Source: a virus (taxonomy: Duplodnaviria; Caudoviricetes). From it: a stretch of DNA of 46,268 bases. The stretch covers positions 1 through 46,268 of the IMG/VR virus record IMGVR_UViG_3300046779_000664; one strand, 5' to 3'. Made by a program: the position numbers and the translations under genes. How positions within the stretch are numbered: position 1 is the stretch's first letter; the number at the start of each line of letters is the position of its first letter. Under the pieces are notes generated by a model that had not been told where the DNA came from, did no database searches, and saw only the letters and a program-made list of their open reading frames with translations. Positions 19,039-46,268 of the stretch are shown piece after piece.

Positions 19039-20637
19039 ATGGCAGGAAAAACATTAGACGGCGTATTAATTAAAAAGGCGCACAGGCAAGAGCGTTTTAC
19101 AGAAGCTCACGTTGCCGATTTAGCCGCCTGTGCCGATCCAGATACAGGATACTTGCACTTTGCAAAAAACTTCTTTTACATACAACACCCTGTAAAAGGT
19201 AAGTTATTATTTGAACCTTTTGAGTATCAAATAAACTTATTACATTCATATCATGACAATCGATTTAACATAAACATGTTGCCACGTCAAAGTGGTAAGA
19301 CAACATGTGCCGCAGGTTATTTGCTGTGGTACGCAATGTTTCATCCAGATCAAACTGTACTAGTTGCCGCACACAAGTACACAGGTTCTCAAGAAATTAT
19401 GCAACGTATTCGTTATGCATACGAGGACTGTCCGGATCATATTCGTTGCGGTGTAACAAACTACAACAAGGGTAGTATTGAATTTGACAACGGATCACGT
19501 ATAGTATCCGCAACAACTACAGGCAACACGGGTCGCGGTATGTCTATTTCATTACTATACTGTGACGAGTTTGCGTTCGTACAACCAAACATTGCTGAAG
19601 AGTTTTGGACATCTATTTCGCCTACACTAGCAACTGGTGGTAGAGCAATTATTACAAGTACTCCTAACTCAGACGAAGATACGTTTGCTAACATTTGGAA
19701 AGAAGCAAATAAAAAGTTTGACGAGTTTGGTAATGAAACTGAATTAGGTATTAACGGCTTCCACGCATTTAAAGCAGATTGGTGGGAACATCCAGACAGA
19801 GACGATGCATGGAAAGTTACAGAAATGGGTCGTATCGGTGAAGAACGTTTCCGTCGTGAATACGGTTGCGAATTCTTAGTCTATGACGAAACATTAATTA
19901 ACAGTATTTGCCTTGCAGGATTAGAAGGCAAAGAACCAACGCTAAAGATGGGCCAGTGCCGTTGGTACAAAAAGCCATCGGACGAATATATCTATGCAGT
20001 TGCACTTGACCCTGCGTTGGGTACAGGTGGCAACTATGCGGCTATTCAAGTACTCGAACTACCAACGATGGTGCAAGTAGCGGAGTGGCAACATAATACT
20101 ACTGCTGTTGAAGGACAGATAAAGATACTTAAAGATATTTGTAAGTATATTGCTGAAAGTTGTCCTAAGATGCAAGGATCAAATATCTACTGGAGTGTTG
20201 AAAATAATACAGTAGGTGAAGCGGCACTTGTTGTTATTAAGAATGTTGGCGAAGAAAGCATACCTGGACTGTTTATAGCAGAGCCTATACGCAAAGGGCA
20301 TGTACGTAAATTCCGCAAAGGATTTAACACTACACACAGAAGTAAGATATCAGTGTGCTCCAGATTAAAGCATTTAATCGAAAGCGGAAAAATGAAGGTC
20401 AACAGCAAGGCGCTGATTAGCGAATTAAAAGCATTTATCGCTAGTGGTATTAGTTTTAAGGCTAAAGTGGGTGAAACAGACGACTTAGTATCTGCTATGT
20501 TGCTTGCTGTACGCATGAGCGCAGTTATGGCTGATTGGGATCAGCGTGTATTTGATGTAATGACTGGACGCTTAGATGACGACGAAGACACTGATTTTGA
20601 GCCGCCAATGCCCATATTTGTTTCAACTGGATTCTAA
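19039..20637 (+). CDS. terL: Terminase large subunit (T4 gp17-like)
   Basis: Walker A PRQSGKTT, Walker B LLYCDEFAF, ITSTP coupling motif, F.REY.CEF, nuclease ALDPA...DDLV. Confidence 0.96.
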   Translation: MAGKTLDGVLIKKAHRQERFTEAHVADLAACADPDTGYLHFAKNFFYIQHPVKGKLLFEPFEYQINLLHSYHDNRFNINMLPRQSGKTTCAAGYLLWYAMFHPDQTVLVAAHKYTGSQEIMQRIRYAYEDCPDHIRCGVTNYNKGSIEFDNGSRIVSATTTGNTGRGMSISLLYCDEFAFVQPNIAEEFWTSISPTLATGGRAIITSTPNSDEDTFANIWKEANKKFDEFGNETELGINGFHAFKADWWEHPDRDDAWKVTEMGRIGEERFRREYGCEFLVYDETLINSICLAGLEGKEPTLKMGQCRWYKKPSDEYIYAVALDPALGTGGNYAAIQVLELPTMVQVAEWQHNTTAVEGQIKILKDICKYIAESCPKMQGSNIYWSVENNTVGEAALVVIKNVGEESIPGLFIAEPIRKGHVRKFRKGFNTTHRSKISVCSRLKHLIESGKMKVNSKALISELKAFIASGISFKAKVGETDDLVSAMLLAVRMSAVMADWDQRVFDVMTGRLDDDEDTDFEPPMPIFVSTGF

Positions 20638-27514: not shown

Positions 27515-28436
27515 GAGCTACCTTAGTAGTTTACCAACGCACATCAACGGCGAAGAAAAAATAAATGCACTGACATATTTTGCCGAAGGCGCCAACAAGT
27601 GTGGAGACATTGCCACCACTACACGGTCGCAGATATATGAATCTTGTGACGTCGGCGCAATCATTGGAAATGCGTTTGATGCAAACCCAAGTAAAGTTCG
27701 ATTATCGCACTATAAAGTTCGCAAAATGGTAATGGATACACAAACTAGTCTAGGAAAGTATTGGCTAAGTGTTGATAGCAATGTATTCATCTACAAGAAC
27801 AAATTGAATCCTCATAGATACTTGCGCTATAGTTTTAACGGAGTATTTCCTGCTACCGGCATTTATTGTAATGAAAATCCAGGTAACGAGAATTGGAACA
27901 ATATAAAGCGTGACTATAATATGGACTTGGCTCCGTGGCGAAAGAACGGAAATCATATTCTTATAACACTCCAACGTCCTATGGGCTGGAGTATGCGTGG
28001 CTACAACTTAATGCAATGGCTAAACGAAACATTTACTAAAATAAGAACGTATTCTGACAGGCCAATAATTATTCGCTGGCATCCCGGGGATTGGAAAAAT
28101 ATTAACTTGTATATGCCAATGCTTAAACAATATAAAGCAATTATTAGCCCACAAGACAGACATATTACACAAGATTTAGTAGACTGTTGGGCACTAGTAT
28201 GTCATAACAGTACTCCTAGTGCCGTTGGGCCCATGGAAGGAATACCTGCGTTTATAACAGACGATCCTAGTTACAGTCAGGGTGGAGATGTTGCTAATAC
28301 AGATTTCAGTTTACTAGAAAATCCAAAACTTGTCGATAGAGAATTATGGATTCGTAAACTAGCACAATGTCATTGGAGTTTTGCAGACCTAAGAAGCGGA
28401 CGTTGTTGGGCGCACATGCGTCAGTGGGTTAAGTAA
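27486..28436 (+). CDS. Putative GT-B glycosyltransferase, KpsC/KpsS-like
   Basis: ILITLQ, SDRPIIIRWHP, LVCHNS......MEGIP, W...LAQCHW. Confidence 0.65.
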   Translation: MSNEKPLVIKSYLSSLPTHINGEEKINALTYFAEGANKCGDIATTTRSQIYESCDVGAIIGNAFDANPSKVRLSHYKVRKMVMDTQTSLGKYWLSVDSNVFIYKNKLNPHRYLRYSFNGVFPATGIYCNENPGNENWNNIKRDYNMDLAPWRKNGNHILITLQRPMGWSMRGYNLMQWLNETFTKIRTYSDRPIIIRWHPGDWKNINLYMPMLKQYKAIISPQDRHITQDLVDCWALVCHNSTPSAVGPMEGIPAFITDDPSYSQGGDVANTDFSLLENPKLVDRELWIRKLAQCHWSFADLRSGRCWAHMRQWVK

Positions 28437-40508: not shown

Positions 40509-41957
40509 ATGACAAGACAGAATACAGACTACGGATTCGATATACAAAAACTATATTTGGAAATGATGCTCAGTGACGCAGGAACATTTGTGCGTTGCCA
40601 AAGTATCTTTGATCCAACATTATTTGACCGTCGCTTACAAGATGCGGCAGAGTTCTTAAATGGTTATGTTACAGAGCATAACGCATTGCCCACGTATGAT
40701 ATGGTACGTGCGGCCACTAAGACAGAACTTAATGAGCCAGGCATACTCAAAGACGAACACTATGATTGGCTCATGGCAGAGTTTGAAACATTTACTCGCC
40801 ACAAAGGACTTGAACGTGCCATTCTTAAGTCAGCAGACTTGTTGGAAGAAGGCAACTATGGTCCAGTAGAAGATATGATTAAAGCGGCTGTGCAGATTGG
40901 CTTGCAAAAAGACATGGGCACAGACTACTGGGCAGATCCTAAAGGACGCTTACTAGGACTTAAAGATAAAAACGGACAAGTTAAGACTGGTTGGGATACA
41001 GTTGATAAACGCTTATTTGGAGGTATGAACCGTGGAGAACTTAACATTTTTGCCGGTGGATCAGGTGCAGGTAAATCCCTCTTTCTTGCTAACCTTGGCG
41101 TAAACTGGGCCTTACAAGGATTGAATGTTTGCTACTTAACACTTGAACTTAGCGAAGCACTAGTGTCCATGCGTGTAGACTCAATGACCACAGGCATTAG
41201 TACTAAAGAGATTTTCAAGGATCTTGACAACGTCGAAATGAAAGTTAAGATGATTGGTAAGAAGTCGGGCGCATTCCAAGTTAAGTATATGCCGTCAGGT
41301 AAAACAACCAACGACATTCGTGCTTACTTAAAAGAGTACGAAATTAAAATGGGCCGTAAAGTCGACGTACTGTTAGTGGACTACATGGACTTGTTGTTAC
41401 CTATCAGCAAGAAGATTTCAGCAGAAAACTTGTTCGTTAAAGACAAGTATGTAGCAGAAGAACTACGTAACTTGGCCATGGAAAAGCAATGTGTATTTGT
41501 TACTGCGGCACAGTTGAACCGTGGTGCTGTTGAAGAAGTTGAATTTGATCACAGTCACATTTCAGGTGGTTTAAGTAAGATTCAAACTGCTGACAACGTC
41601 TTTGGTATCTTTACTAGCCGTGCTATGCGTGAACGTGGCAAGTATCAAATTCAGTTAATGAAAACTCGTAGTTCAAGCGGCGTGGGTATGAAGATTGACT
41701 TGGACTTTGATATCGATACACTACGCATTACAGACCCCGGACTCGAAGGCGACAGCGAGTACAAGCCAAAGTCTAGTGCTATTCTAGATACTTTAAAACG
41801 CACATCATCTACTGCTCCTACAGTAGATCCAGAAACTGGTGAAGTGGATCCGCAAGCAGGTGCTCCTATGCCCAAGATCCGTGCGCAAACCGATAGTACT
41901 AAACTACGTCAATTCTTGAACAACATGAACAGCGACCCAACTGACAGCCCATTTTAA
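40509..41957 (+). CDS. Replicative DnaB-like helicase (T4 gp41-like)
   Basis: TGW..VD..L.GG, Walker A GGSGAGKS, TLEL, VDYMDL, AAQLNR, TAD, KTR. Confidence 0.93.
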   Translation: MTRQNTDYGFDIQKLYLEMMLSDAGTFVRCQSIFDPTLFDRRLQDAAEFLNGYVTEHNALPTYDMVRAATKTELNEPGILKDEHYDWLMAEFETFTRHKGLERAILKSADLLEEGNYGPVEDMIKAAVQIGLQKDMGTDYWADPKGRLLGLKDKNGQVKTGWDTVDKRLFGGMNRGELNIFAGGSGAGKSLFLANLGVNWALQGLNVCYLTLELSEALVSMRVDSMTTGISTKEIFKDLDNVEMKVKMIGKKSGAFQVKYMPSGKTTNDIRAYLKEYEIKMGRKVDVLLVDYMDLLLPISKKISAENLFVKDKYVAEELRNLAMEKQCVFVTAAQLNRGAVEEVEFDHSHISGGLSKIQTADNVFGIFTSRAMRERGKYQIQLMKTRSSSGVGMKIDLDFDIDTLRITDPGLEGDSEYKPKSSAILDTLKRTSSTAPTVDPETGEVDPQAGAPMPKIRAQTDSTKLRQFLNNMNSDPTDSPF

Positions 41958-41990: not shown

Positions 41991-43301
41991 ATGGCATCAG
42001 GATCAGCACCACAAAGAAATATACGCTTACAAGGAAGAACTTCTGCTTCCTTGAACAACGCTGGTAGCGCCGGCGAAATCTTCTGGGATAGTACCACAAA
42101 TGCTTTGCGCTTGTATAATGGACAAATAGTCGGTGGTCGAGTAATTGCTGACAGAGTATGGGTACAATCGCAGATAGACAACATCGATACTTTTAGCGGC
42201 AACTATAACGACTTAACTAACAAGCCTGTAATTCCAAGTTTAACAGGCTATGCTACGGAATCTTATGTTACTCAAGCAATTAGCGGCATCGATTTAACCG
42301 GATACGCTACTGAAACGTATGTAAGCACAGCACTATCTGGCTATGCTACCGAAACGTATGTCTCTACAGCATTAACCGGTTACGCCACAGAATCTTATGT
42401 TACTTCGGCCCTTGGCGATGTTTCTGTAGATTTAACAGGATATGCTACGGAATCTTATGTTACAACAGCCATATCTAATCTAATAGATACTGCTCCTACT
42501 ACATTAAACACATTAAATGAACTTGCGGCGGCGCTGGGCGACGATGCTAACTTTGCTAGTACAGTTACCACCGCATTAGGTAATAAAGCACCGTTAAACA
42601 GTCCAAGTTTTACGGGCACAACCGAAATTACAGGCGACGACAATCGTTTAGTCATTGACTCGACGCAGACAATATTTACTAGTTCTTATAACGATACTCC
42701 GCCTGTTAATATTAAGCCATCGGCATTAGATTATAATTATACAGCAGTAAATCTTGCTCCGATGATAGGAGATGTTAGAATCGCAACAAATGCTAGTAGT
42801 AGATTAACTTTAGACTGTAGTGTTGCTTGGGGACAATCTAACGCTAACTTTGACATTTACGGTTATGGTCAAATTAACCTAGACAGCTCTGTAAGCACTT
42901 ATCGCGGTGTAATTAAAAAGTTCAAAGCCACAGATATTGAATTTGAAAATACCTGCGAAGTTATGACATCCTTAACTGGCGCTACAGGTGTAGTTGCTCA
43001 TAATTATAACTCAGGAACTGTATTTTATCATTCTAGCATAAGCGGAAACTTTACAGCAAACTTTACCAACATGCCTACAACCACCAACAGAGTTATAAGC
43101 ATGACATTAATACTATCGCAAGGCGCCACATCCTACATTCCAAGCGCAGTACAAATTAACGGCACAAGCCAATCTATACAGTGGTTTACAGGCACAACGC
43201 CCACAGGACTAGCCAACAAGGTTGATATTGTTACATTTAACATAATTAGAACTTCGGGTGGTGCGTGGACAGTACTTGGCAGTTTAAGTACATTTGGATA
43301 A
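41991..43301 (+). CDS. Tail fibre-like protein with YATESYV repeats
   Basis: FSGNYNDLTNKP, five GYATE(S/T)YV repeats, APTTLNTLNELAAALGDD.NFA fibre motif. Confidence 0.8.
   Translation: MASGSAPQRNIRLQGRTSASLNNAGSAGEIFWDSTTNALRLYNGQIVGGRVIADRVWVQSQIDNIDTFSGNYNDLTNKPVIPSLTGYATESYVTQAISGIDLTGYATETYVSTALSGYATETYVSTALTGYATESYVTSALGDVSVDLTGYATESYVTTAISNLIDTAPTTLNTLNELAAALGDDANFASTVTTALGNKAPLNSPSFTGTTEITGDDNRLVIDSTQTIFTSSYNDTPPVNIKPSALDYNYTAVNLAPMIGDVRIATNASSRLTLDCSVAWGQSNANFDIYGYGQINLDSSVSTYRGVIKKFKATDIEFENTCEVMTSLTGATGVVAHNYNSGTVFYHSSISGNFTANFTNMPTTTNRVISMTLILSQGATSYIPSAVQINGTSQSIQWFTGTTPTGLANKVDIVTFNIIRTSGGAWTVLGSLSTFG
42240..42470 (+). repeat. Five coding repeats of L(T/S)GYATE(S/T)YV
   Basis: Visible in protein and DNA (e.g. 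ttaacaggctatgctacggaatcttatgttac). Confidence 0.9.
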
Positions 43302-43305
43302 TCAT

Positions 43306-44505
43306 ATGCCTAGAATATCTGCAATTGGCAATCAAAATATTTTGGGTAAGACAAAAAGTAGATTTGTTGATTTCGTCTACGTTGGTACAGTATTCAAAGA
43401 AGTTATCAGCAATGTTACATTAACCTTACCCAACGGAGTTACAATCAACGGCTCAGATTTAGTCTTTGACAATACTAAGAACACCTACATTGGCTATGAC
43501 CTTCCTGTAAATTTTGATGGTACAAACTGGAGCATGGAAATCGTGTTTGAAGCCGCACAATCTATGTGGGACACTAGTTTTATTTTTAACAGCCCAGGAT
43601 TGATGGGTATTGGCCGTAGCACTCAAGAGTTTACTATGACTGCCATAACCGTTGGCACTAGCAGTGGAAATTATAGCATCCAACCATGGAGTTCTACCAA
43701 CTATACAGGCAACAGTAGTGCCGCGACCAGCAGTCCAGCGGGCCAAACTTATGCTAAATGGATAATAGCACCTGGTGCAGGCTCAACACTTTACTATACC
43801 GGACCTAGCGGTACTATACAAACCACTCCGTTAAGTCTCGGTACTGCTGGTGGCGAGCTAGATAAATTCTTTATAGCAGGCTGGCCATGGGCACCTACAA
43901 CAGGCAAGTACTTGGGTAAGATTCGCGCGGCCAGACTAAGCAGTCCTGCAGACACTACCGTTCCAACCAGTGTTCCTGTTTTTACTTCAGCCAGCGCCAC
44001 TGCTAACGATAGAGTTTTTATTGTAGGCACAGGCACACCAGTACCTGCTATAGGCAGTTTTTGGGAAGGCGGATATTATATTGGCAACATACAAGTGGGC
44101 AGTCTTACCTATGCTGTAATCATAGCCGACCAAGCAACTAAATCTGTTGCGGCCGCACATACAGGCGGAGTGCCCACAGATGGTTCTACTAGTTTAGTAG
44201 ACGGACGAACTAATACAGCACTTCAAACCAATGCGGCCAATGCTGCCGCAAACTATTGTCGTAGCATTAGTCTAAACGGTTACACAGATTGGTACTTGCC
44301 TGCTAAAGACGAAGTTGACCTAGCATGGGCAAACAAAGCATCCATACCGTCGGCACAAATCACCGACTTACAGTTAGTAACTAGTAGTCAGACTAGTACG
44401 TTTTATTGGGGACAAAATTTGAGTAGTATCCCTCGCCAACAGTATCTTGTTAACTTAAATCAAACAGGTTGGGTACGTCCAGTTAGAAGAGTTAGGATAG
44501 CCTGA
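43306..44505 (+). CDS. Receptor-binding-like protein with C-terminal DUF1566 / C-type-lectin-like domain
   Basis: IGSFWEGGYY.G, DGRTNT, AANYC....NGYTDWYLPAKDE, VRPVRR; alternative start at 43294. Confidence 0.7.
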   Translation: MPRISAIGNQNILGKTKSRFVDFVYVGTVFKEVISNVTLTLPNGVTINGSDLVFDNTKNTYIGYDLPVNFDGTNWSMEIVFEAAQSMWDTSFIFNSPGLMGIGRSTQEFTMTAITVGTSSGNYSIQPWSSTNYTGNSSAATSSPAGQTYAKWIIAPGAGSTLYYTGPSGTIQTTPLSLGTAGGELDKFFIAGWPWAPTTGKYLGKIRAARLSSPADTTVPTSVPVFTSASATANDRVFIVGTGTPVPAIGSFWEGGYYIGNIQVGSLTYAVIIADQATKSVAAAHTGGVPTDGSTSLVDGRTNTALQTNAANAAANYCRSISLNGYTDWYLPAKDEVDLAWANKASIPSAQITDLQLVTSSQTSTFYWGQNLSSIPRQQYLVNLNQTGWVRPVRRVRIA

Positions 44506-44529
44506 TCTTGAATAATATGAATTCGGATC

Positions 44530-45177
44530 CTACTGACAGTCCGTTTTAACTAGAGCCTGTACAAACTCCCTGAGCCTTAGCCAATCCCTGCCCTGGTGAA
44601 AATGCCCCCGCATCCAACTAGGGTAGTCATACCACGATAGTTCACTTTCAGGATGACAACCTATTAGGCCTATGCGATTCTGCTGTATGGCCATAGCATC
44701 ACCATTGGCATAGGTAGCCCAAGTAGTTCTACTACCCGAACCAAATATACTACAGCCATCGTAGAAGTACATGGTTGTGGATTCGCCCTGCCAAGAAATC
44801 TGTATGTTTTTAGCATGTGGGCGACGAGTATCCGCCCCGGGCCTAGTTATATACTGCTGACAGTCCAGGTTATCTAGGATATCCAAGTACTCGGGCCCTG
44901 CCCAATAAGCACCCATGCATACACCTAGATAACTACCGCCCTGACTGATATACTGTCTTATGGGCTCCTTGTGATAACGCATAAGCCTATGGAACTGTTC
45001 TGAGTCGCCCTGTCCTCCTGGTACAACAATCAAGTCCTTGCTGTCAAAGAATCCCGATTCCACTTCCCTGGGCCCAAACACACTAATACGAAAGTCCTCA
45101 CCCAATACGTTTATTATAGCATTGGCGCACTGAACAGAGCAGTATGGGTCAGCAATGAATATTGAACAGGACTTCAT
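44530..45177 (-). CDS. BPL_N-like class I glutamine amidotransferase-fold protein
   Basis: VPGG.GD, GGSYLGVCMGAYWA, YFYDG, LIGCHPE (Cys-His-Glu triad). Confidence 0.8.
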   Translation of the reverse strand: MKSCSIFIADPYCSVQCANAIINVLGEDFRISVFGPREVESGFFDSKDLIVVPGGQGDSEQFHRLMRYHKEPIRQYISQGGSYLGVCMGAYWAGPEYLDILDNLDCQQYITRPGADTRRPHAKNIQISWQGESTTMYFYDGCSIFGSGSRTTWATYANGDAMAIQQNRIGLIGCHPESELSWYDYPSWMRGHFHQGRDWLRLREFVQALVKTDCQ

Positions 45178-45246
45178 TACAGATATTTACCCAGGGCGAG
45201 AGTCTCGAAGCGGCGAAGCCGCAGAGCGGTAAAAAGCCAAAAATTT

Positions 45247-45277
45247 AGGGTCAATTATCTGCGTAGATAACGACCCT
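45247..45277 (-). terminator. Hairpin terminator downstream of pqqA
   Basis: AGGGTC..TTATCT-GCGT-AGATAA.GACCCT stem flanked by A/T tracts. Confidence 0.6.
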
Positions 45278-45295
45278 TTTTATTACCTCACACGC

Positions 45296-45367
45296 TTACT
45301 TGTTCATTACGTACATAGTAACTTCAAAGCCAAAGCGCATTTCAGTAGCACTAGGTTTAGTCCACAT
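45296..45367 (-). CDS. pqqA: Pyrroloquinoline quinone precursor peptide PqqA
   Basis: Not in ORF track. Translates MWTKPSATEMRFGFEVTMYVMNK with the W.KP...R.GFEVT.Y signature (E-x3-Y); AAGGAG RBS at 45376-45381. Confidence 0.95.
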   Translation of the reverse strand: MWTKPSATEMRFGFEVTMYVMNK

Positions 45368-45476
45368 AGTAGTGTCTCCTTAGTTAGTTAATAAACATAC
45401 TCGAGTTGTACAAGTATGTATCAGTATATTAACACTAAATGCCCCTAAAACACATACTGAAAACCATTAAATGAGC

Positions 45477-45755
45477 CTAGTGAATTGTATGCTCGTCCCA
45501 AGGCACTTCTATGGCTGTTTCTAGTATAAGTTCATACTGCTCACGGTCGTTTAAGTCTGCCATACGCTGTGTAAACAAACTAAACAATATACCCGTTATG
45601 GCATCAGGATCTACGCCTGACTCTTCTAACTTAGTAGACAATGCTTCAAACGTTACTAACAACAGTTCTTCAACTTGGTCTTCTGTTAACTTACTATAGT
45701 CCTCGTTGGGAACTAACTCTTCTACCTTTGGCTGCTTCTGACTACGTTTTGCCAT
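45477..45755 (-). CDS. Small acidic hypothetical protein
   Basis: AAGGAG RBS; ends in TIH. Confidence 0.7.
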   Translation of the reverse strand: MAKRSQKQPKVEELVPNEDYSKLTEDQVEELLLVTFEALSTKLEESGVDPDAITGILFSLFTQRMADLNDREQYELILETAIEVPWDEHTIH

Positions 45756-45766
45756 TGACGCTCCTT

Positions 45767-46050
45767 AAAATGGGTCTTGCCGAGTTTTAAAAATTTCTGC
45801 GTAAAAAATTTTGAGTGGGTACTTATAGTGGTGCCCAGGTTGTTTTTGGCTGTGTGTACTGTACTTATCACTATACATAACGGTCGACAAATAAACCTTT
45901 AGTATAACGGTTTCTACGATAGTACTGATGGCCGTAAGTAATATATCTGTGCATAGCTCGCTCCTATACACTTATATAGTGATTTAACTGTCTTCGGGCT
46001 GGAGCCAAAATGGGTCCACAGGGGTTACAAAATCTGCGCCGCGAAAAATT
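45767..46050. repeat. Two degenerate 44-nt direct repeats 240 nt apart
   Basis: AAAATGGGTC...AAAAT..CTGCG...AAAAATT at 45767-45810 and 46007-46050. Confidence 0.55.
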
Positions 46051-46268
46051 AAAAGATAGGGTATTTTTCCCTCGACCTGGTGATTTTGTACCTATATGGT
46101 TGAAAAAAACAGGTGTTAGCAAGTGTTGTTTTTTTACAACAAATTTATTTGTATAGCCTCTCGGTCTTTTTTTTTCGAAAAAATATTTCTATACCTCTCG
46201 AGATTTTTTTCTAAAAAAAATCCTCTGACTACCGGGAGCGAATCGGATTTATGTCAGAGGATCAAAAC

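Follow-up and report, generated by a model that had tools for sequence, protein, structure and literature searches.

Stand-alone pqqA in an optional cassette of a T4-like jumbo phage likely to infect freshwater Methylophilaceae

Why should a phage carry the gene for PqqA, the precursor peptide of the cofactor PQQ, with none of the genes for the enzymes that process it? This question is raised by a short open reading frame close to one end of a viral DNA of 46,268 nucleotides (IMG/VR record IMGVR_UViG_3300046779_000664), the whole of which is called the window here. A sequence-only reading had regarded this frame as a phage-encoded, stand-alone pqqA that supplies precursor to the host enzymes and points to a methylotroph host. 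Here, we examine this proposal computationally. The frame covers positions 45296–45367 of the minus strand, comprises 72 bases with 23 codons, and translates as MWTKPSATEMRFGFEVTMYVMNK*. The peptide passes both curated models of PqqA, TIGR02107 (40 bits against a cut-off of 20), which the sequence-only reading had named as the check to make, and PF08042 (43.3 bits against a cut-off of 21.1), and it is therefore a member of PqqA by score. It has the Glu-x-x-x-Tyr core near the C-terminus, at E15 and Y19 of 23 residues (codons at 45311–45325, minus strand), both of which become PQQ and are invariant in eight of eight related phage peptides; in the M. extorquens peptide, these residues are Glu-16 and Tyr-20 (PMC10906245). 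A loose PqqA-like pattern has a single match in the window and none in 200 base-shuffled windows. The strong ribosome-binding site that had been noticed is also present, as AAGGAG at 45376–45381 on the minus strand, 8 bases before the start, and an RBS-like word precedes all 120 viral copies of the PqqA type of the window.

Does the gene really belong to a phage? The window encodes tail sheath, tail tube, terminase, UvsX, UvsY, primase and DnaB. Its T4-like terminase large subunit (19039–20637, plus strand), a marker of the lineage, is 54% identical to the best cultured match, that of Pseudomonas phage PA5oct, 72–74% identical to those of two records of 356 and 364 kb that are 96–100% complete, and 90% identical to that of another IMG/VR record, G459. 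As the window is only about 13% complete and these relatives are of 356 and 364 kb, it represents a piece of a T4-like jumbo phage. The DnaB-like helicase gene (40509–41957, plus strand; PHROG 19), 90–91% identical in the related records G001 and G002, anchors the locus to the phage core. It is followed at 41991–44505 by two tail-fibre-like or Lcl-domain genes forming a variable slot, and DnaB is joined directly to the next gene in contigs of runs X1, X3 and X8 and in G001. This next gene, which lies downstream of pqqA, encodes a BPL_N/class I glutamine amidotransferase-like protein (44530–45177, minus strand; PF09825, 39.8 bits) and has 46 related loci in IMG/VR viral contigs; a small GC hairpin conserved in G001, G002 and G459 precedes it at 45210–45222. 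On the other side lies a gene for a 92-residue hypothetical protein (45477–45755, minus strand), with orthologues in G001, G002 and G459 and no Pfam, PHROG or NCBIfam match, and upstream of it is an A/T-flanked CTGCG motif (45790–45812) shared with G001 and G002.

A locus about 900 bases from the end of the contig, with near identity to host genes and close to a rise of GC content to 0.46 at 44001–45000, could in principle stem from chimeric assembly or from contaminating host DNA. However, single contigs span pqqA with both flanks in runs X3 (44813–46268), X5 (45020–45478) and X4 (45059–45539), one contig of 3,686 bases in X1 joins DnaB and pqqA, and overlapping contigs cover pqqA in X1, X8 and X12. 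The six DNA runs concerned come from five studies, and X1 is possibly the source run; the runs holding the stretch are freshwater or aquatic metagenomes. Moreover, the independent records G002 and G459 have the pqqA cassette at the same site. Contamination or chimerism, which had been named as the outcome of read mapping that would overturn a phage origin, is thus refuted and has practically no probability left: pqqA is a host-type metabolic gene in a true viral genome with viral genes on its flanks.

That pqqA stands alone has been borne out as well. No match to PqqB, PqqC, PqqD or PqqE was obtained by tblastn in the window, with 11 of 80 host loci serving as the positive control, nor was PF05402 found, and this absence is bounded by the size of the window, about 13% of a phage genome by CheckV. 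No pqqB–E match was obtained in the window, G001 or G002, and none occurs near pqqA in 80 flanked viral loci of the type of the window or in 160 loci when both viral types are taken. A solitary position is common in hosts too: 69 of 80 chromosomal Methylophilaceae loci have no pqqB–E inside the fetched flank. Methylophilaceae are described as having 3–12 copies of pqqA, typically with one pqqB–G set, and xoxF in the core genome (PMC4109929).

Comparison with relatives has revealed that the gene sits on a small optional unit. In G001 (270 kb, 71% complete, DnaB 91% identical), 201 bases are missing between the gene for the 92-residue protein and the downstream hairpin, and no PF08042 match was found in the entire record. 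Three further relatives, 14–76% complete, likewise gave no PF08042 match, leaving one of five relatives positive: G002 (DnaB 90%), in which this site encodes a peptide identical to that of the window. The cassette is also present at this site in G459 (terminase 90%), whose peptide departs from that of the window at four residues. As a sister phage with 91% DnaB identity has no cassette at this site, the cassette is dispensable for the lineage. Other features of G001 are 32 tRNA calls, among them one for a CTA anticodon, together with a tmRNA call (L394:5723-18576, L395:4767-5169), and four tryptophan-halogenase-family genes in tandem, surrounded by 2OG-Fe(II) oxygenases (L384:15255-19691, L385:196-1764). 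Other parts of the record encode a CHASE2 adenylate/guanylate cyclase, a histone H1-like Hc1, a fatty-acid desaturase and two ClpP.

The cassette lies directly after the stop codon of the gene for the 92-residue protein. In it, a −10-like element is separated by 6 bases from a 9-bp inverted repeat, which is followed by the ribosome-binding site and pqqA. A promoter role for the first element and a hairpin role for the second are predictions from the sequence. The putative extended −10 element (45426–45434, minus strand) has no clear −35 partner; a consensus promoter scan called neither this element nor any promoter at the pqqA start, and it found four promoter-like sites in the window against 4.0 expected. 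The inverted repeat (45395–45419, minus strand; 9-bp stem, 7-nt loop) could form a hairpin at the 5′ end of the mRNA, although its fold alone has a z-score of only −1.48, and it may instead be a DNA operator. Strain differences in runs X4 and X12 lie in its loop (45405–45406). The same stem occurs in 22 distinct phage leaders, which is no evidence of covariation because the search pattern fixed the stem, and in all 22 the −10-like hexamer is placed exactly 6 nt before the stem where 5–7 nt was allowed. Rfam covariance models gave no match in 44400–46268 at E up to 1. On the other side of the gene, the downstream hairpin that had been pointed out in the sequence-only reading does exist (45239–45281, minus strand); the 72 nt that follow the stop codon have a fold of −24.6 kcal/mol with a z-score of −4.27, matched by 1 of 200 shuffles. 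The hairpin is at most a possible terminator: a consensus terminator scan did not call it, and a terminator-like hairpin at the same place in G001, which is devoid of pqqA, means that it is not specific to pqqA.

Where does this leader come from? The repeat was found before 25 of 114 viral copies of another PqqA type (EITMY) and, with a looser match, before 1 of 118 viral copies of the type of the window. It precedes none of 125 Methylophilaceae host copies and none of 50 copies sampled from genomes of other Burkholderiales, which rules out a host origin of the leader for the copies seen. Many leader-bearing loci share proteins with G001 or G002, and four are tied to the lineage by DnaB or terminase; a DnaB search in 10 leader-bearing records placed two in the lineage (74–75% identity), the other eight being fragments 7–48% complete. 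The peptides behind the 22 distinct leaders end in EITMYIANR (14), EITMYVMNR (6) or EVTMYVMNK (2).

The coding part has been maintained more strictly than its surroundings. Between the window and the syntenic copy of G002, the surrounding DNA is only 69% identical, and pqqA differs at four bases, all of them synonymous; across eight peptides of the lineage, 15 of 23 residues are invariant. The gene is thus intact and under purifying selection. Among 120 viral copies of the type of the window, 106 distinct DNA sequences were counted, every copy has the full ORF, and variation is concentrated at third codon positions, an observation that is partly circular because the search pattern fixed most residues. 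The same pattern missed variants with Tyr for Phe at position 12, so that all viral counts given here are lower bounds; three such phage peptides, with C-termini ending MNR (L589:6052-6123, L590:1918-1989, L587:6040-6111), are absent from every host copy examined here, and the two tested pass TIGR02107. One might suppose that pqqA is a neutral passenger, or a DNA-level site of integration or recombination, picked up often because hosts have many short copies (3–12; PMC4109929), and the optional nature of the cassette would agree with this. This reading is disfavoured and seems very improbable: besides the partly circular evidence of full ORFs with a ribosome-binding site in 120 of 120 viral copies and third-position variation, no host-like genes flank the viral loci, and the non-circular evidence, the four synonymous changes relative to G002 and intact copies in four unrelated types of cultured phages (35–44 kb or 141 kb), also speaks against it.

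The history of the peptide is partly readable. The exact peptide of the window is found in none of 132 host copies as opposed to 21 of 120 viral copies, and it is one residue away from a host peptide, having Ser6 where most hosts have Ala. Ser6 is encoded by AGT, which a single change separates from the ACT of G459; in the other viral copies with Ser6, the codon is TCA (37 of 37). Of 252 copies from hosts and viruses, the one nearest to the gene of the window belongs to a Ca. Methylopumilus MAG, with 4 of 72 bases different. In the 3′ 42 bases there is only one difference from this Methylopumilus gene, as against 7–12 from the copies of the lineage other than G002. We infer from these patterns that the coding sequence of an older cassette of the lineage was acquired from a Methylophilaceae gene, an event for which both would have to be in one cell. 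The peptide can apparently drift within the lineage as well, judging from the four residues that differ in the G459 copy and from a leader shared across PqqA types.

Which bacterium is the host? In GTDB genomes, the pattern for the type of the window matched 123 loci in 9 of the 64 parts into which the collection is divided; by hand count, 108 have Methylophilaceae-group titles, 13 have unspecific titles and two come from one MAG titled Acidovorax caeni. Among the loci with unspecific titles is L193 (CAUYTX010000455.1), a phage-like contig with pqqA within a bacterial assembly. In an even draw from Burkholderiales, a tally that includes two unpublished genomes, the C-terminal type of the window was present in 5 of 401 genomes and some PqqA in 87 of 301; one of the five is Ca. 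Methylopumilus universalis, three are in the draw of its family, and the fifth has nearly the same leaders. The peptide type is thus nearly confined to Methylophilaceae, a family-specific type such as a phage of this family would have, and the earlier suggestion that the sequence is closest to Methylophilaceae PqqA has held, both in these 108 of 123 loci and in the nearest gene. Markers independent of pqqA have pointed to no Methylophilaceae host and were uninformative: the AhpD-like gene of G001 was matched in none of 41 genomes of the family and in 9 of 121 of the order, at 60% or less, the tRNAs of G002 were not diagnostic, and a tRNA of a sister phage matched Methylopumilus at 84–88% against 91–92% for several other Burkholderiales genomes. 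We regard a Methylophilaceae host as quite probable. The methylotroph host of the sequence-only reading is accordingly likely by way of the PqqA type, the one marker that points to it; the AhpD-like and tRNA markers added nothing, and close relatives carry other PqqA types behind the same leader.

The same supply of precursor might therefore be directed to another PQQ-making member of Burkholderiales, or to several, in which PQQ serves alcohol or sugar dehydrogenases rather than methanol oxidation. A leader that precedes EITMYIANR, EITMYVMNR and EVTMYVMNK peptides alike, the occurrence of PqqA in 87 of 301 Burkholderiales genomes, the failure of the AhpD-like and tRNA tests to point to Methylophilaceae, and the Acidovorax caeni-titled MAG having the type of the window would all suit such a host. 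However, the last 42 bases are one change from Methylopumilus and 7–12 from the copies of the lineage except G002, and the cultured carriers all infect Methylophilales. The MAG itself (CALRJH02; L172/L186) has 10 PqqA matches, at least two of them of the Methylophilaceae type, and may be mislabelled, since 10 is a Methylophilaceae-like number. We consider such a host unlikely.

How widespread is pqqA in phages? Short-query searches of phage databases, which had been proposed with the sequence-only reading, were made in 50,697 GenBank phage records, and two different PqqA queries matched the same 12: nine cultured Methylophilales/Methylophilaceae phages, one phage from a spring metagenome and two 'Acinetobacter phage MD-2021a' contigs. 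The latter two were discounted, as the one inspected proved to be a bacterial pqqABCDE operon. No pqqA match was found in cultured phages of other hosts among these records. The cultured carriers belong to siphovirus-like, Zobellviridae and Kyanoviridae lineages; five of their copies were scored with TIGR02107, and each passes. All nine cultured records matched carry pqqA and none has it annotated as such, in line with the remark that gene callers usually miss frames this short; in Melnitz-1, an opposite-strand hypothetical gene is annotated at the site. Venkman, MEP301 and Melnitz were the only OM43 isolates before MEP401/402 (PMC10580990), and all OM43 isolates named there carry pqqA; later isolates may exist. 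P19250A (KX815270.1) has an unannotated pqqA at 28085-28153 (locus L245:3001-3072), and PMC7678222 states that this phage encodes none of the AMGs reported there. In IMG/VR, about 1,100 stretches with the type of the window (120 seen in 7 of 64 parts) and about 360 with the EITMY type (120 seen in 22 of 64 parts; L396–L515), many of the latter on large phage contigs, are estimated to exist.

An outline of the proposed function is as follows: host RNA polymerase would transcribe a short mRNA from the −10 element, with the 5′ hairpin and the strong ribosome-binding site; host PqqD would bind the N-terminal leader of the translated peptide, PqqE would cross-link Glu15 and Tyr19, and other host enzymes would finish PQQ, which would be loaded onto the host methanol dehydrogenase and sustain energy and carbon flux during infection. 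In bacteria, PqqD is reported to bind the PqqA leader and PqqE to cross-link Glu and Tyr (PMC10906245), and PqqA is converted into PQQ while the other pathway proteins have been suggested to be reusable (PMC9851590). With the peptide consumed and the enzymes reused, PqqA would be the one part whose supply depends on ongoing expression, and so the only part that the phage needs to carry. A phage carrying just this part fits the logic of PqqA consumption, and it is plausible that phage PqqA supplies precursor to host PqqB–E. Taken as a whole, the reading that we favour with reasonable confidence is that a T4-like jumbo phage, likely infecting freshwater Methylophilaceae, has an intact, stand-alone pqqA in an optional cassette of 201 bases and would express the peptide as extra substrate for the PQQ enzymes of the host. 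As for transcripts, RNA run X22 gave three contigs of 33–45 bases covering the coding part only, with 1–2 differences in those listed and indistinguishable from host pqqA, and X23 gave none for the locus, so that neither counts for or against expression; the runs listed as holding the stretch include no RNA run.

PQQ is a reusable cofactor. Its new synthesis may consequently matter little within a single infection. Alternatively, the expressed peptide might bring a benefit other than methanol oxidation, either through free PQQ as a redox buffer or through tying up PqqD/PqqE and the use of SAM. No dehydrogenase accompanies pqqA: no PQQ-dependent dehydrogenase was found in nine related records, two of them at least 90% complete. 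Nor did Pfam models reveal a methylotrophy gene among 224 proteins that G001 and G002 encode and that match no window protein, a set without 14 short ORFs of G002 and the ORFs of G001 outside 85–900 aa. The peroxiredoxin-, AhpD- and ferritin-like proteins of G001 indicate that redox stress matters to the lineage, and some peptides of the lineage match no sampled host type. Nevertheless, E15 and Y19 are kept in a peptide one residue from that of a host, whereas in a decoy one would expect a reactive residue to have been lost, and enrichment in phages of methanol specialists fits methanol oxidation better. A benefit of this kind is in our view improbable, and precursor supply for methanol oxidation is preferred.

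What, then, does the locus add? The window copy alone adds little, as viral pqqA with the same interpretation was already published in 2020; breadth matters more. We found no paper on pqqA in cultured methylophages or on the cassette, most subscription journals and supplements being outside the scope of the search. The string 'pqq' is absent from the main text of PMC8024684, PMC10580990, PMC8163748, PMC12361551, PMC12619734 and PMC13573597, whose supplements may list pqqA, PMC9004378 has PQQ only as a medium component, and PMC11118758 mentions PqqA only for bacteria. Thus, two observations were not met with in the literature searched: unannotated pqqA in all nine cultured Methylophilales phage records matched, and a lineage-wide cassette with a shared leader but differing PqqA types. 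A broader and frankly speculative idea, which seems possible but less likely than not, is that almost all Methylophilaceae phages have a pqqA that has been overlooked, with a role like that of psbA in cyanophages; in the jumbo lineage it would be a portable promoter–hairpin–RBS cassette whose coding part is replaced to match the PqqD/PqqE of each new host, so that the peptide type would record host switches among freshwater Burkholderiales and be readable as a host marker. If the peptide type does track the host, 72 bases would suffice as an inexpensive indicator of the host of large uncultured freshwater phages. Cultured phage–host pairs already exist in which a possible phage boost of cofactor supply for methanol oxidation can be studied.

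The closest known system is that of Lake Baikal, where PqqA together with methanol dehydrogenase was described in T4-like viruses assigned to Methylophilaceae and interpreted in the same way (Coutinho et al., 2020; PMC7678222). Like the window phage, VP_266 of that study is a T4-like freshwater virus with pqqA, a predicted Methylophilaceae host and a proposed AMG function in methanol oxidation. Unlike it, VP_266 also encodes methanol dehydrogenase, which was found in none of nine relatives of the window phage, and the available text describes no cassette or leader; the likeness is one of description, and the lineages may or may not coincide. Virus-encoded pqqA has also been reported from freshwater metagenomes of reservoir sediments, where pqqA, pqqD and pqqE are listed as viral phosphorus-cycling AMGs (PMC13188868); there it is read as serving phosphate solubilisation and, in the available text, is not among the genes reported as transcribed. 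Chromosomal pqqA of Methylophilaceae encodes the same peptide type, mostly away from pqqBCDE (PMC4109929), whereas the window copy is viral, has Ser6 and follows a leader absent from 125 host copies. Finally, the cultured phages Venkman, P19250A, MEP301, MEP401/402 and Melnitz likewise have a stand-alone pqqA of 23–24 codons with a ribosome-binding site, although these Methylophilales phages are unrelated to the window phage, smaller and provided with other leaders; the peptide of the OM43 phage Venkman is identical to that of the window, with nine base differences and no residue change.
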